Assembly: GCA_045837725.1 (NCBI GenBank)
Contig: JBEWZL010000095.1
Coordinates: forward strand, 1 to 64,000
Length of the DNA stretch: 64,000 nucleotides
Direction of reading: 5' to 3'
DNA from: Vermamoeba vermiformis
Taxonomy: Eukaryota
Part shown: one piece after another, positions 17,954 to 30,667 of the stretch
Numbering within the stretch: the stretch's first letter is position 1
Layout of the letters: every line of letters starts with the position of its first letter
Made by a program: the position numbers and the translations under genes
Notes under the pieces: model-generated
The model's input: the letters and a program-made list of their open reading frames with translations, nothing else
The model's database searches: none
What the model was told of the DNA's origin: nothing

Positions 17954-18035
17954 CAAAACCAGCGGCGGCAAATCTCCGTTAGCGCGCAAGATTCGCACAA
18001 CGACACGTGCGCTTGTGAATTGGGTGCACAAAGTT
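17954..18035 (+). promoter_or_regulatory. Conserved upstream cassette CACGTG + TGTGA(A/T)T + CACA(A/G)AGTT, first of four copies
   Basis: Same ordered motifs at 18004/18013/18027, 19289/19298/19316, 20452/20477/20506 and 21081/21121/21151, each upstream of a cluster gene. Confidence 0.7.
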
Positions 18036-18109
18036 AATCAAACGAAAATTTCCAAATTTTCATCATTATCCAATTCCTCGCCCACAACTCAACTTCGACT
18101 CTTGTTTCA

Positions 18110-18508
18110 ATGCACATGTCGCAGCAATTTGTCGTACTCTTCGTCTTGCTAGCCCTCGTTGCAGCAACTTCTGCCAGTCTTACATGCTACTCTGGTGTTG
18201 GAAATACCGTTACCACTACCACTGTGGAGGATCCAACATACATCTGCCTCAGATACGACTTTACTTGCTCCCCCAGTGATGGCGCCTGCACCGCTGAAGA
18301 AGGAGCCAAAGGTGTTACCAAAACGGCGTATATCGTAAGCACCCAAGACACATGCAATACAATGCGAGCCAATCCGACACTTTATCGCAACGTATATTGC
18401 TGCTCAACCAACCAGTGCAATGCTCCTATCGGCTCCACTAGCTTTGGAGTTGTCGTGGCTCCGGTCCTCAGCTTGGTTTCAATGACCGCCCTCTATTTGG
18501 CATTGTAA
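18110..18508 (+). CDS. Secreted, predicted GPI-anchored three-finger (Ly6/uPAR-like) protein A
   Basis: Signal peptide; LTCY...CCSTNQCN with 8 Cys; small-residue omega region followed by a hydrophobic C-terminal tail; intronless. Confidence 0.8.
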   Translation: MHMSQQFVVLFVLLALVAATSASLTCYSGVGNTVTTTTVEDPTYICLRYDFTCSPSDGACTAEEGAKGVTKTAYIVSTQDTCNTMRANPTLYRNVYCCSTNQCNAPIGSTSFGVVVAPVLSLVSMTALYLAL

Positions 18509-19388
18509 TTCACTCTTGAAGAATTGTTACAAACTTCAAGTTTGACATCAATAAACATGCTCAATAAACCGTAGTTTCGAATCATTGTGCAAGCAATCTG
18601 ATGGATTAATTGTTTCTTAATGGCCGGGCTACAACTTGACACCGGAACACAAAGTTTCGGGCCCGAAATGATTCACAACAGCCCAAAAAAGACATGAACG
18701 AGAAGAATGTGCCATGATCACAACGTTAAGTCTGTCTAATTCACCAACTTCCTACTCTATCGATAACGTCAATGCGCATTAATTGATTTCGAAATCGATG
18801 CTAATCAATCAAATGACAAAAAACTATTTTAGTTGTTTAAATTTTGGCCTCGTGGAACAAGAGTTCGCCTATCGAACTACGGCAACGGGCTTTAATATAA
18901 GCTTGTTAGGAGATTTGAGTGGAATGATCGAGTTCTGTACAGGTACGGTTTGTGATCGGCTGTAATCTGGGAAAATTAGTCAAGTGAATTATAAATGTCA
19001 TACATATTTGCAAAATAATTATTAGGACAAAACCGTAATTTTAGTACAGCTCGAGCTAATTTTTAAAAAATAAAAAAAAAATTATCCCTCTTTTCCTTTA
19101 GATCGCAGAGCAGCGGACCAATTAATTTCTTAATTGATGTAGGTGCTTATGGTGCCAAAATAGAAGATTCAAATGATTACAGCGAAGATCCACCAGATTG
19201 GGGTGTCGCGCTGATTTTGATTCATTCAAACAACAAAACCTGTAGCGGCAAATCTCCGCCAGGCAAGCGCGGAAACTCCGAACAACGACACGTGCGCTGT
19301 GAATTGTCCACGGCGCACAAAGTTGCGCCTATTTAATCGAGTGTTATTCTTTTTTGCTCAATAACACAAACACAGCCACTGCCAAAAC

Positions 19389-20386
19389 ATGCACACGCAA
19401 CGCGCTATATTCTTCTTCGTCTTAGCTTTAGCCGCGCCGCTAGCCCTGGCACAAAACTGCTACATCGCAAATACAAAATCTTCAGGGCTAACTCAATGCC
19501 AAGCCCCGCCGTTCTTCACCCGCGTTGATTTTTCAACTTCTAATGGCTGTTCCTATTCATATTGCAGTGCGAATATTACCAACAACGGCATTCAAGGCGA
19601 TCAATTTACCGGGTACACTACGGATTTCAACGCGATCCCAAAACCACTCAAGTACGTCCAATTGCAGTACTATAGTGACGTTCAATGCTTGAACCCGAAG
19701 AGAATGGAATTCCTTACCGATTCTCCCTGCGGCACGGAAACAAGTAAGAACATAATATAAGATCTCAATATCATTTTTTTAATATTTTGGCAGGTTTTTA
19801 CGCAACGTGCAACCAAACGCATGCTCGAGTGATTCAATACTCGTACGGCTGCAGTGCCGTGGTGCAAGACAGCACATATACTCTAAACCAATGTGCTGGT
19901 GGTCCTGACGAATTCGTCGTGGCCAGTTGCGGAACATCCGGATCTGCTCCGAACACTTCTCCTGTACCTACACCTAGCAGCTCACCACGCCCCTCTTATA
20001 CACCGTACTACTATCCTCCTATCACTAGACGTGCTACTCCACTCTCTTGCTATTTTAACGCGTCCTCAACCTCGATCACGCTGTACAATGTTACAGATGC
20101 GAGTCTGATGTGCGGTCGCTACACATTTATATGCCCTCGCAATGTTACATACTGCACTGAAGGGTCGGGTATCACCGTTTTTACTTCTATTAGCAAAGAT
20201 ACTTGCCAGTTTCTGATGCAAAGTCCTCAGTATCGCGACGTGATCTGCTGCGACACGAACTACTGCAATGGCCCTGGCTACTCGACACCTAATGTTAGCG
20301 GTGGTACTGCTATTGTTCCGTCGCTGGCTCTAGTCGTCATGATTACCTTATTTGCTTATCTACGTGACATTGTAATGCAAAAATAA
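19389..20386 (+). CDS. Secreted Cys-rich protein B: N-terminal Cys module, Pro/Ser/Thr linker, three-finger-like domain, GPI-type tail; 2 exons
   Basis: Signal peptide; intron about 19744-19793; LSCY...CCDTNYCN followed by a hydrophobic tail. Confidence 0.75.
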
Positions 20387-20614
20387 ATGCATTACACCTA
20401 AATAAGGTGCTTGATTATAAACGAAAAGCGCTGATTATGGATCGGATCTGACACGTGTCATTCTGTCGGCGATCATTTGTGATTCGGAGTAAGTTGCGTT
20501 CGGTTCACAAAGTTGAGTCGGACACAAAGTTAAAATAACCGTGAACTAAAATAAACAGAGATATATTATTATATTACTTCAATTCCCAATCTACAGTCAC
20601 ATCTCCTTCTTCAA

Positions 20615-21001
20615 ATGATTCGTAACCTCGTTCTTGCAATTCTTCTTGCAATTGCTACGGCAACTGCTGCAGAATTAACATGCTACAGTGGCTCGGGCAA
20701 CTCCATCACGACTACCACAACGCAAGATCCAGATGCGGTCTGCATTAGATACGAATTCACGTGTACTCCCGGCTCTTGCAATTCTGACGAAGTAGCCAAC
20801 AAGGTCACTAAAACAGCCTATGCAATGACCAACACAGAGTCCTGCAACAATTTGAGGAACAGTCCGACCATCATCCGCAACCTCCTCTGCTGCTCAACGA
20901 ATAAGTGCAATGCGCCGATCGGCTCAACTAGCACCGCCCGCACTGCCATTCCTTCAATCGTCTTGGTCTCTGCCACTGCTGTAGTACTGTTTGCTTTGTA
21001 A
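20615..21001 (+). CDS. Three-finger-like GPI protein A', paralog of 18110
   Basis: LTCYSG...CIRYEFTC...VTKTAY...CCSTNKCNAPIGSTS is nearly collinear with 18110-18508. Confidence 0.8.
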   Translation: MIRNLVLAILLAIATATAAELTCYSGSGNSITTTTTQDPDAVCIRYEFTCTPGSCNSDEVANKVTKTAYAMTNTESCNNLRNSPTIIRNLLCCSTNKCNAPIGSTSTARTAIPSIVLVSATAVVLFAL

Positions 21002-21239: not shown

Positions 21240-21599
21240 ATGAGAACTTATATTGCTGCGTTTTTTGCTTTGTTTGTCCTTGCGCCATTGGCACTAGGCC
21301 AAGACTGCTACTTAATTGTCGCACAATCCTTCAGCTCGACACAATGGCAAGGGCCTCCGTCCTACACCACCGTGAGCCGAGATCCTTTTAGTGAATATTG
21401 CAATGCTACTCGCTGCGTAGAATCAACATATTACGGTCAGCCTCTGGAGAACTTTTTTATTTACACTCGTGATCATTGGCAACAAAGAGGCCTATGCAAT
21501 CATCAGAAGACTAAAACAAGACAACGCGTTCTTATTTTAAGCGAGTGTGCCGATCATTCCACCGCCAGGAATATTACGCTTCACGCTCGTGGGGGGTGA
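21240..21599 (+). pseudogene. Truncated paralog B' of the 19389 gene
   Basis: Signal peptide and APLALGQDCY...STQWQGPP match B (APLALAQNCY...LTQCQAPP). Similarity stops near 21478; one Cys is replaced by Trp; no downstream domains or tail. Confidence 0.55.
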
Positions 21600-28080: not shown

Positions 28081-30402
28081 TTAGGTGAAAATTAGGAACA
28101 ACAGCGCGGTGACTAAGATTGATAGCACACCATGATATTCGAATAGAGCCGCAGCGGTGCTCACTCCCGAGGGAGATCTGCTTGGCGGCGTAGTAGCAGT
28201 GTAGGGAGGTGAAGTGACTGGTCCTGGTACCGACACAATTTCTGCATCAATTCGTTAGTACTTAATTGTGGATTAATAGTAAGCAGACTTACTCGCTGGA
28301 GTGACAGACCAAACCGGATTTGGATCGAAATTTTGTTTCATTTCGGGCCAATTGGTCGCATTAACCATTCTGAAATATGATTCAACAGCGCCAGGTACTC
28401 CCAATTGCACCGCATACGAGATGGCAGGCTGAAGATTGCCCCACATAGATCTGGGCCAAAATCCAATGTCATATTCGGCACTCAGCACTCCTTCTTGCGT
28501 GCTCATCCAAGTTGGTGGTGTCGCGAATGTAGCAGCGTAAACAGCGGACCAATCAGCGAGCCAGGGACCAGCGCCTGTTTGGAAGTCGGGAACGTCAACG
28601 TTTGAGACCGTAATCGTGTACGGAGCTCCATTGATGTACCAGAAGCCAGTGGACGGTCCTAATCTGCCGACAACGGACTTGGCCTTCCATTGGAAGAATT
28701 CCATGGCTTTTTGGCTGTCTGCATCCGACACTGGCAGATCTAGCGAGATCGCGTGGCCCCAAGCAGCCGTAACAAAGTCTTGTTGCCACACAGCCACAAT
28801 GCCCGTGGCCTGACCACCACTGCCGTTGTCATATGCTTCTCCAGGCTGAATAAGTCCAAAGTCGTTGTTTTGTTGCTGGATGTACTTGGCGTGGTGGAAG
28901 CGGATGTTGCTCTCCCAACTCGCTTTGAAATTGTTGCGATAGTCATCGGCATCAGGAGTGACTGAATAAGCTTGGGCGAGGGCTCTGATCATCCACGCTG
29001 AAGAACGGGTCTGCACAGCACCAACGACTGAATGCAAAATGCCCGAGCTCATATTCCGCACGACGTCGGTGCCACCATTGTCAGTGAGGCCCAAGTAGTT
29101 GGTGGTGGCTGCAAACTGCACTTGTTCCATGAACAACCAGCGGCCAGTGACTAAATAAGCCAAGTAGCCTACTGACGGTGAATGTGCAGGGTCCCATTTA
29201 GGGGCTCCAGTTCCGTTACAGCGCGGAGTGATGTCGTTCTTGCTCGAGGCACCGTTGTTGTAGTATCGACACGTGTCATCAATGACCAAATTAGGATAGT
29301 CGCTGAATCGAAGGGGTTTCAAGGTGTTTTCATCGCGCCAAATCAACGGATAACGACCAGCACTGTAGCCATTGAACACGACGCCCTTGTAGACTATACT
29401 GGCGTTAACAGAAGTCAAATACGCCACGTCGTGCTCGGGAAGCATGCCAATGGGCCGTTGATAGCCAGGAGACGGCATTGAATCGGAGTCGTAGTCGAAG
29501 TTGCCTTGCTGTAAGGGCGCAAAAGAGCCAACTAAACGACTCACCGCTGCTTGCCCCGCATCGGCATCGGCAAAATATGAAGGGACGAGAAGCGAGGCTT
29601 GCATATAGATCGTGTCGTGGTGGACGGTAACGGCGGGATCTGTTGCGCCGAACCAATAAGAAAGAGCTGTTCCCGACAACAGAGGAGTGCGTGTATGAGC
29701 AGGGAGATCGATGAGACTAGTAAAGAGAGTGTCGCCGCCCAATTGAAAGTTGAAATTAGCGGTTTTGTTGGTCGGATTGGGAACGCGGATGTAGCCGTTT
29801 TCGATCCAAGGAAGAACCTCGACCGCTCCTCCCTTGTAAAGACGCACGTCTAACCAGGCAACGAGATAAGGGTCGTTTCCAACAGGCTTACGGAAAATCC
29901 AGTTCGACATCTGCCAGCCAGAAGTCCATTCCAAGTGAGGAGAGTCCCAATCAGCATTTTGCCAGGAAACACTTCCATAGCTCTCGCAATCTATCGCTGC
30001 GGTAAGACCAGTGGCCTTCAAATCGCTCAGCGTCAGAGGAGAACTATTCGTGTCACTCGCAGATGGACCGAGCGTCACAACCAACGGGGTGTCTGCGGTA
30101 AGAGCCGCGTGGCCAGAAATTATGGCGTATTTCAATGAGCCATCGGACCAATAGTTTTTCGGCACGACTTGCATTTCGGCAAGATTCGAAGCAGCAACAT
30201 TTTGACCGGATGCAATGTGGCCCTTGACGAAAGAGAAGCCTAACGTGAATGGTGCGCTGCCAGTAACAGGACTGAGTAGCACGAAAGACATGGCGCCTGT
30301 AGGAGTTGGCACGGAGACACCGGAGTACGTCGTGTTGAGGCACAAAACGGATCTCGACAGCGAGCAAACTAACACTGCGACCAAAATAAGTCCGAGGTGC
30401 AT
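28081..30402 (-). CDS. Secreted bacterial-type ~700-aa protein with a spliced Pro/Ser/Thr linker and GPI-type tail; exons 30402-28293 and 28241-28081
   Basis: Signal peptide and a long intronless body. Intron 28292-28242 (GTAAGT...TACTAAC...GCAG) adds KIVSVPGPVTSPPYTATTPPSRSPSGVSTAAALFEYHGVLSILVTALLFLIFT* in frame. Confidence 0.85.
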
Positions 30403-30667
30403 GGTGTTGGATTATCTAAAATTAAAAATAATCAGCATTGCTTGTTCTGACAGTTAAAGGGATCTCATTGCAGTCCCGTATTTGTCCGTTGCTGAATTTA
30501 GTAAGAAAGATATTTGAATCTTTGGCGTGTGTGTTACTCCAAATCAAGACAATAAATATATATTAGACAGATTCATACTTACGAAGACAGGTAGATTTGT
30601 CAGTCGAAGGCCAGTGGACATTCAAAAGTGACTTTGTACACACAGCAGCCTAGGGCAAAAAGGATGT

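Follow-up and report, generated by a model that had tools for sequence, protein, structure and literature searches.

Animal LU proteins and an amoebal gene cluster

Domains of the Ly6/uPAR (LU) type are known from glycosylphosphatidylinositol (GPI)-anchored single-domain proteins (CD59, Lynx1, PSCA, Prod1, GPIHBP1), from the snake three-finger toxins and from multi-LU proteins such as uPAR, C4.4A, CD177 and TEX101, and a domain of similar kind forms the ectodomain of the Activin/BMP/TGF-beta receptor kinases. The LU consensus comprises disulfides 1-5, 2-3, 4-6, 7-8 and 9-10 plus an asparagine, and the loops and concave sheet bind proteins (PMC6600238). According to the accessible parts of the same paper, members often lose 2-3 and rarely 7-8, loss of 4-6 is not among the losses listed, and the typical animal gene has an intron which splits the domain; its abstract speaks of ‘eukaryotes’, and the examples given in those parts are all animal. 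In a 2026 survey, 14 Pfam clan profiles detected the domain in each of 387 invertebrate genomes and in all the animal phyla covered, and 1,500 genomes of fungi, 169 of plants and 2 of choanoflagellates yielded no LU domain; its conclusion dated the motif to the step by which animals became multicellular, and the available portion of its text names no amoebozoan, discoban or alveolate genome (PMC13719153). There is likewise nothing on protists in the accessible portion of PMC12236594, and a literature search, with subscription journals mostly outside its scope and scattered automatic database labels possibly existing, returned nothing that reports such domains from these lineages. Here we describe three neighbouring genes in the first 64,000 nucleotides of contig JBEWZL010000095.1 (assembly GCA_045837725.1) of the amoeba Vermamoeba vermiformis, a stretch referred to below as the window. 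Our best explanation, which we hold to be fairly likely, is that they form a tandem cluster of a divergent three-finger (LU) family of microbial eukaryotes, with a likely shared ancestry with Ly6/uPAR and a use as a surface binding module. The cluster is composed as follows.

18110..18508, plus strand: gene 1, 132 amino acids, one exon; signal peptide (about amino acids 1-22), three-finger-like domain and hydrophobic GPI-type C-terminal tail
18176..18430, plus strand: domain 1 (gene 1), 85 amino acids; cysteines 4, 24, 31, 38, 60, 75, 76 and 81, then asparagine
19389..19743, plus strand: gene 2, exon 1; signal peptide, followed by the first part of a cysteine-rich N-terminal region of another kind
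19744..19793, plus strand: gene 2, intron of 50 base pairs, GT-AG
19794..20386, plus strand: gene 2, exon 2; remaining N-terminal region, Pro/Ser/Thr linker, three-finger-like domain and hydrophobic tail with a short polar end
20042..20275, plus strand: domain 2 (gene 2), identical set of eight cysteines
20615..21001, plus strand: gene 3, 128 amino acids, one exon; signal peptide, domain and GPI-type tail
20675..20920, plus strand: domain 3 (gene 3), identical set of eight cysteines

The initial annotation of this DNA, made from the sequence alone, had described genes 1 and 3 as they are given here, and the coordinates and translations of their open reading frames (ORFs) agree with it. It had also placed a domain at the end of the product starting at 19389, which is correct once the intron has been spliced and not for the ORF itself, as this stops at 19760; reading straight in frame into the domain was thus rejected, and the spliced product is of 315 amino acids. 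Exactly the 50 bases of the intron are skipped in one contig of run X1, its acceptor is joined by 12 (X20) and 17 (X22) raw RNA reads from a diverged relative, and the junction is spanned by P0109, a Vermamoeba vermiformis transcriptome protein with 61% identity over 313 residues, into which the loose ends of RNA reads labelled Vermamoeba vermiformis translate by eye. Contigs of X1 and X2, runs guessed to be of RNA, extend over genes 1 and 2 (18088-18467 for the former) and leave the spacers uncovered, and gene 3 had zero depth in all four read runs compared. The closest paralog of gene 3 is gene 1, with domains 57-59% identical. Signal peptides and GPI-type tails were judged from hydropathy only, and on this measure hydrophobic ends are present where the initial annotation put signal peptides and tails; gene 2 departs from that description in its tail, and since this ends short and polar its product may be anchored by a transmembrane helix rather than by GPI.

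The host assembly (43.3 Mb in 309 contigs) contains at least seven copies of the domain on five contigs. Contamination with animal DNA was considered and is unlikely given these seven copies on five contigs, the Vermamoeba ortholog of gene 2 and the eukaryotic housekeeping genes nearby; the ortholog also bears out the earlier assignment to a non-animal host. Set beside the GPI-anchored single-LU proteins, the window genes have the same order of putative signal peptide, domain of 80-90 residues and hydrophobic tail, the same tandem clustering and the same predicted sheet of three loops, loop III bearing a helix, and share positions 1-5, 7-8 and 9-10 and the final asparagine. They differ in that the window domains are without 2-3 and the family mostly without 4-6, in an extra loop-II pair, in a loop II which is longer and contains a short helix, in an intronless domain, in identities of 13-21% and scores below the Pfam cut-offs, and in their non-animal host.

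Predicted fold and cysteine framework

An AlphaFold2 model of the gene 1 domain, built on 88 aligned sequences, has a predicted local distance difference test score (pLDDT) of 96.5 and a predicted template modelling score (pTM) of 0.84, with strands at residues 2-8, 11-17, 22-30, 48-56 and 71-76 and helices at 40-45 and 57-64. In this predicted model three beta-hairpin loops extend from a putative disulfide core, within the 60-90 residues by which LU domains are defined. When the model was compared with 48,161 representative PDB chains, ranks 1-39 were all three-finger/LU domains and the first unrelated chain had a Z of 3.7. The top match was CD59 (Z 8.4, root-mean-square deviation (rmsd) 2.7, 67 residues), with kappa-bungarotoxin (Z 7.6), GPIHBP1 (Z 7.2) and a complex of ALK2 (Z 6.3) among the others. 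The rows shown by Foldseek were exclusively LU (best E 3.8e-3), and the best of its matches reached Z 8.9 on realignment (rmsd 1.8, 64 residues). A second model, of a member of 198 residues with the 4-6 cysteines, gave LU domains in the top 35 rows (best Z 6.7). A search of predicted viral structures found no match (best E 1.1). The structure prediction and structural search that the initial annotation had proposed thus rank LU domains top, and with model, rankings and Foldseek rows all pointing the same way, the window domains very probably adopt the predicted three-finger fold.

Six copies from the host genome have in common the eight cysteines listed above and the asparagine which follows. 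The shared framework put forward earlier is present in all three window domains, with the correction that the loop-II cysteines stand 4-6 rather than 5-6 residues apart. A HMMER alignment to alpha-bungarotoxin identifies the window cysteines with LU 1, 5, the loop-II pair, 7, 8, 9 and 10, and LU cysteines 4 and 6 are both absent, as had been supposed from a by-eye mapping in which one core pair was jointly missing. At the level of sequence positions, 1-5, 7-8 and 9-10 are in register, and we infer the disulfide pairs 4-24, 31-38, 60-75 and 76-81. The 2-3 disulfide of loop I is also absent from the window domains; this does not exclude kinship, as accepted LU members often lose it (PMC6600238).

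Of 212 domains of the family, 178 keep both Cys 60 and Cys 75 (LU 7-8), 30 have lost both and 4 are discordant (112, 24 and 3, respectively, when one domain is taken per protein, n=139), and since joint losses so outnumber discordant cases the two positions behave as a pair. Of 49 domains with a loop-I cysteine, 7 also have one at the LU-6 site, against 0 of 111 without (p 1.8e-4), in a test where 63 domains without a clear start were left unscored and the seven domains came from six proteins, two of these domains sitting in a protein of the amoebozoan Pyxidicula. The core 4-6 pair, absent from the window domains, is therefore found in 7 of 160 scored family domains. Asparagine directly follows the last cysteine in all three window domains and in 208 domains of the family, where the next commonest residue occurs at most twice. 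That the family varies along LU rules, with joint loss of 7-8 and an occasional 4-6 pair, is the best argument for common descent.

Long-chain alpha-neurotoxins, together with other snake three-finger toxins (Toxin_TOLIP) resemble the window domains in having no 2-3, in the pair they carry at the loop-II tip and in a CC-x4-CN end, with Z up to 8.9. The window proteins, in contrast, are probably membrane-anchored, lack the 4-6 pair that toxins keep and have a helix in loop III, and where a long-chain alpha-neurotoxin is defined as secreted, unanchored and with five disulfides including 4-6, they would be anchored and have four pairs. The loop-II pairs of the two groups are probably independent gains, and convergence probably accounts for part of the resemblance to long-chain neurotoxins in particular, as the loop-II disulfide of these toxins is given as a later gain in the accessible text of PMC6600238.

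Sequence profiles lead to the same families. A profile of the family run against 177,635 PDB sequences gave 18 matches at E<=10, all of them three-finger (best E 2.1e-4, 24.3 bits), and none of 282 reversed or shuffled family proteins reached E<=10 with a shorter, domain-only profile (best 9.3 bits). All four Pfam matches of gene 1 are to LU-type families and all are under cut-off, the top being CD59 (E 0.0079; 16.3 bits against a cut-off of 33.9), with Toxin_TOLIP at 12.6 against 21.2. Of 88 aligned members at E<=0.1, 21 match Activin_recp, 19 Toxin_TOLIP, 13 UPAR_LY6 and 5 CD59, and the curated cut-off of an LU-type family is passed by 6 of 59 further relatives. Language-model neighbours scored 0.91-0.93, those with names being QVR, UPAR_LY6, Toxin_TOLIP, CD59 and Activin_recp; a second search of this kind gave weak, nameless neighbours only. 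The full-framework pattern occurs three times in the window and not at all in 40 codon shuffles; it was derived from the window domains, and the shuffles show only that chance does not yield it.

Relatives and a receptor-kinase paralog

A phmmer search of 1.84 billion representative proteins (E<=0.001) found 141 relatives, three of them from the host genome, in which a domain profile located 223 domains; 98 proteins have one and 43 have 2-10 in tandem. Taxa were looked up for 30 of the 141, and five clusters gave names: Naegleria fowleri, Vermamoeba vermiformis, Pyxidicula operculata, Alphamonas edax and Scenedesmus sp. PABB004. We take these to represent Discoba (Naegleria), Amoebozoa (Vermamoeba and Pyxidicula), Alveolata (Alphamonas) and the green algae (Scenedesmus), a spread over several supergroups which upholds the protist family proposed initially. 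Two of the named members lie on long scaffolds (612 kb in Naegleria fowleri, 1.3 Mb in Scenedesmus sp. PABB004), and one further relative comes from a marine-protist transcriptome set. The architectures match those of animal LU proteins, namely single anchored domains, tandem arrays of up to 10 domains and the ectodomain of a kinase. With the multi-LU proteins the family shares tandem domains, seen in 43 of the 141 relatives, and joint loss of 7-8; there is, however, no sign of orthology, and the window genes have one domain each.

One clade within the family lies in animal-type DNA (17 rows, Shimodaira-Hasegawa-like approximate likelihood ratio test (SH-aLRT) 96), with extra cysteines and no introns. 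A neighbour of one of its members matches TASK potassium channels (E 1e-39), and other neighbours appear by eye to be tetraspanin-like, NHL-repeat and glycoside-hydrolase-like genes. From genome traits its hosts are, we presume, probably bdelloid rotifers, and it is possible that this clade took the domain up from a microbial eukaryote. The domain tree, made by a quick search from 112 rows and 88 columns and without an outgroup, leaves 70 of 108 inner branches open, so that no direction of transfer can be read from it. Word-index homolog searches, which are insensitive, matched 6 of 965, 3 of 5 and 4 of 5,091 candidates and did not confirm suspected fungal members; for P0119, from long metagenome contigs and suspected to be viral, no locus was found in viral or metagenome collections, and the phage genomes held no match to the family.

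The Naegleria fowleri member, FDP41_010023 (P0144/P0145), has one domain and a hydrophobic tail, is 37.5% identical to gene 1 and shows weak LU-type Pfam matches; its longer form has a signal-peptide-like start, and the shorter annotated form begins after that stretch. A ‘CD59-like protein’ of this species has been defined by antibody, and the accessible parts of the reports name no gene for it (PMC4082629, PMC12587302). Identity of FDP41_010023 with that protein is a candidate link.

A paralog in the host genome, C202, carries the domain on a kinase.

L007:3957-5433, minus strand: C202 paralog, transmembrane kinase with three-finger-like ectodomain; signal peptide, domain, transmembrane helix and kinase, about 475 amino acids

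The gene has one short GT-AG intron (49 base pairs with the first acceptor) and is arranged head to head with the gene of another transmembrane kinase (L007:5593-7206). P0100, from another source, shares this arrangement of parts as far as the N-lobe of the kinase (38% identity over 237 residues), and as it breaks off where the C202 gene does, a shared intron is suggested. The Activin/BMP/TGF-beta receptors are built in the same order, from a signal peptide through a single LU-like ectodomain and a single transmembrane helix to a kinase, and C202 differs from them by its kinase. The latter is divergent, with HCD in the catalytic loop, and its second exon, the only part searched, gave 39 PDB matches at E<=1e-8 with EGFR and JAK2 the best (about 40-45 bits) and no TGF-beta receptor among the 39. 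A search of the host genome for Smad MH2 was without match, but the controls were silent too and this is no evidence of absence. The LU-kinase of C202 is most likely an independent fusion.

The surroundings of the cluster contain two further features.

17955..18035, plus strand: upstream block of gene 1, with a near-identical copy before gene 2 (about 19237-19325), by eye
21240..21599, plus strand: ORF of 119 amino acids resembling the N-terminal part of gene 2 (by eye), without a three-finger-like domain

The upstream block is probably a duplicated promoter, and two copies of a short segment of it precede gene 3. No convincing Pfam match was found for the N-terminal cysteine-rich region of gene 2 (19389-19743 and 19794-19945), which is conserved in the Vermamoeba relative, nor any Pfam match for the ORF at 21240-21599, where RNA of a relative is present at low depth and one contig has its loose end at 21563. 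Elsewhere in the window, ORFs 1626-2537, 28273-30411 and 47468-47920 look bacterial by eye (pseudouridine synthase-like, a 712-residue secreted protein and TerD-like, respectively) and are possible horizontal acquisitions, and three tandem paralogs at 52421-57553 appear, by eye from the ORF list, to be secreted and esterase/peptidase-like with Pro-rich GPI-type tails. The host amoeba also has an expanded family of MACPF/perforin pore-formers, with 27 matches that exceed the Pfam cut-off, spread over 11 contigs.

Origin and possible role of the domain

Common descent of these domains with animal Ly6/uPAR seems likely to us. Weighing against it, every window protein lies under every Pfam cut-off (UPAR_LY6, Toxin_TOLIP, CD59, Activin_recp) and genes 2 and 3 have no Pfam match to LU families at all; no Foldseek match reaches E<=0.001, Z values of 7-8 are frequent even when a model has no clear match, solved LU domains are 13-29% identical, and animal LU structures are plentiful in the training of AlphaFold. 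To these points may be added that the member with the 4-6 cysteines scored no higher than the gene 1 domain, that the seven domains with this pair are not independent of each other, and that there is no intron at the tip of loop 2, the domains being intronless in the window and in other copies. The window proteins thus count as a variant and not as canonical LU members, on account of the missing 4-6 pair, the scores under the Pfam cut-offs and a gene structure unlike the typical animal one. It might be argued that an independent disulfide-rich beta domain converged on a three-finger-like topology and a CC-x4-CN end, giving a surface binder with no kinship to Ly6/uPAR, as the sub-threshold Pfam scores, the modest Z and Foldseek E values, the two missing consensus disulfides, the extra loop-II pair with its short helix and the intronless domains would allow. 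We regard this as unlikely, given that all the top structural and sequence matches are LU, that the cysteine registers, the final asparagine, the joint loss of 7-8 and the occasional 4-6 pair follow LU rules, and that some relatives pass curated LU cut-offs. Descent by horizontal transfer, in which an animal LU gene entered one microbial eukaryote and spread to amoebae, flagellates and algae, is less probable still. A patchy distribution favours it, with none detected by Pfam profiles in the fungal, plant and choanoflagellate genomes covered in the accessible text of the 2026 survey (PMC13719153), but those same profiles mostly miss the family described here. The subfamily members in animal-type DNA, with a TASK-type channel and a tetraspanin-like gene as neighbours, could be read in the same way; they form, however, a single shallow clade without introns, close to glycoside-hydrolase-like genes, in keeping with uptake by the animal, and the named members are spread over four supergroups, two of them on long scaffolds, whilst viral structures and phage genomes gave no match.

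As to function, the signal peptide would direct the protein into the secretory route, the domain would fold as three beta-loops on a four-disulfide core (LU 1-5, 7-8 and 9-10 plus the loop-II pair, without 2-3 and 4-6), and a GPI or short membrane anchor would hold it on the outer face of the membrane. There would be no catalytic part; as LU domains bind proteins via loops and sheet, according to the accessible text of PMC6600238, we infer a binding module whose loops and sheet may capture an extracellular or membrane protein ligand. On the kinase the domain would act as a ligand sensor, and because it forms the ectodomain of a transmembrane kinase in the same genome, the copies anchored alone are most likely co-receptors, decoys or adhesion/recognition proteins beside a receptor. 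By analogy with animal LU proteins, a ligand-binding role at the surface is thus rather more plausible than not. A narrower role, in which the anchored domains would bind assembling MACPF/perforin-type pores (their own, or those of prey, predator or host) and block insertion as a CD59-like guard, appears improbable. CD59 itself, a complement regulator, attaches to C8/C9 and keeps the pore from assembling. The guard reading draws on the place of CD59 at the head of the structural ranking and of the gene 1 Pfam matches, on the MACPF matches in the host genome and on a Naegleria fowleri surface protein which reacts with anti-CD59 and binds C9 (accessible text of PMC4082629), in a species which encodes a family member. 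Yet CD59 is within 1 Z of toxins, uPAR and others, no MACPF gene was noticed in the window, the copy on the kinase suggests signalling, and CD59 is reportedly acquired from host cells by other protists (PMC8616307, in its accessible part). The fold, moreover, does not carry the function, because schistosome CD59-like proteins in which it is complete failed to inhibit complement in three assays (PMC3812095, likewise). A secreted toxin directed at prey or predators, of the long-chain alpha-neurotoxin kind, is the least credible reading and a very improbable one. The cysteine register and loop-II pair do align with alpha-bungarotoxin and toxins rank high structurally, but all seven copies in the host genome carry a hydrophobic anchor or transmembrane helix, the toxins gained their loop-II pair late (PMC6600238, as above), and toxins are over-represented among solved three-finger structures.

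If the favoured reading of a divergent LU family is followed to its end, we see an even balance between an early-eukaryote origin of the three-finger/LU domain and a later one. Equally poised is the wider picture, in which LU would predate animals and survive in Amoebozoa, Discoba, Alveolata and green algae, animal Ly6/uPAR proteins and the ectodomains of TGF-beta receptors would come from the same stock, the LU-kinase layout would have arisen at least twice, and the Naegleria member would be a candidate gene for the CD59-like protein. Should the family be homologous to Ly6/uPAR, the origin of LU would move back by several hundred million years or more, a disulfide of the core consensus would prove dispensable, and complement control, modulation of nicotinic receptors, gamete recognition, TGF-beta receptors and snake toxins would gain a unicellular precursor. 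Should it be convergent, it would represent a clean second invention of both the three-finger fold and the LU-kinase receptor layout. The family further provides a specific candidate for the gene of a surface protein of Naegleria hitherto described by its reaction with an antibody.

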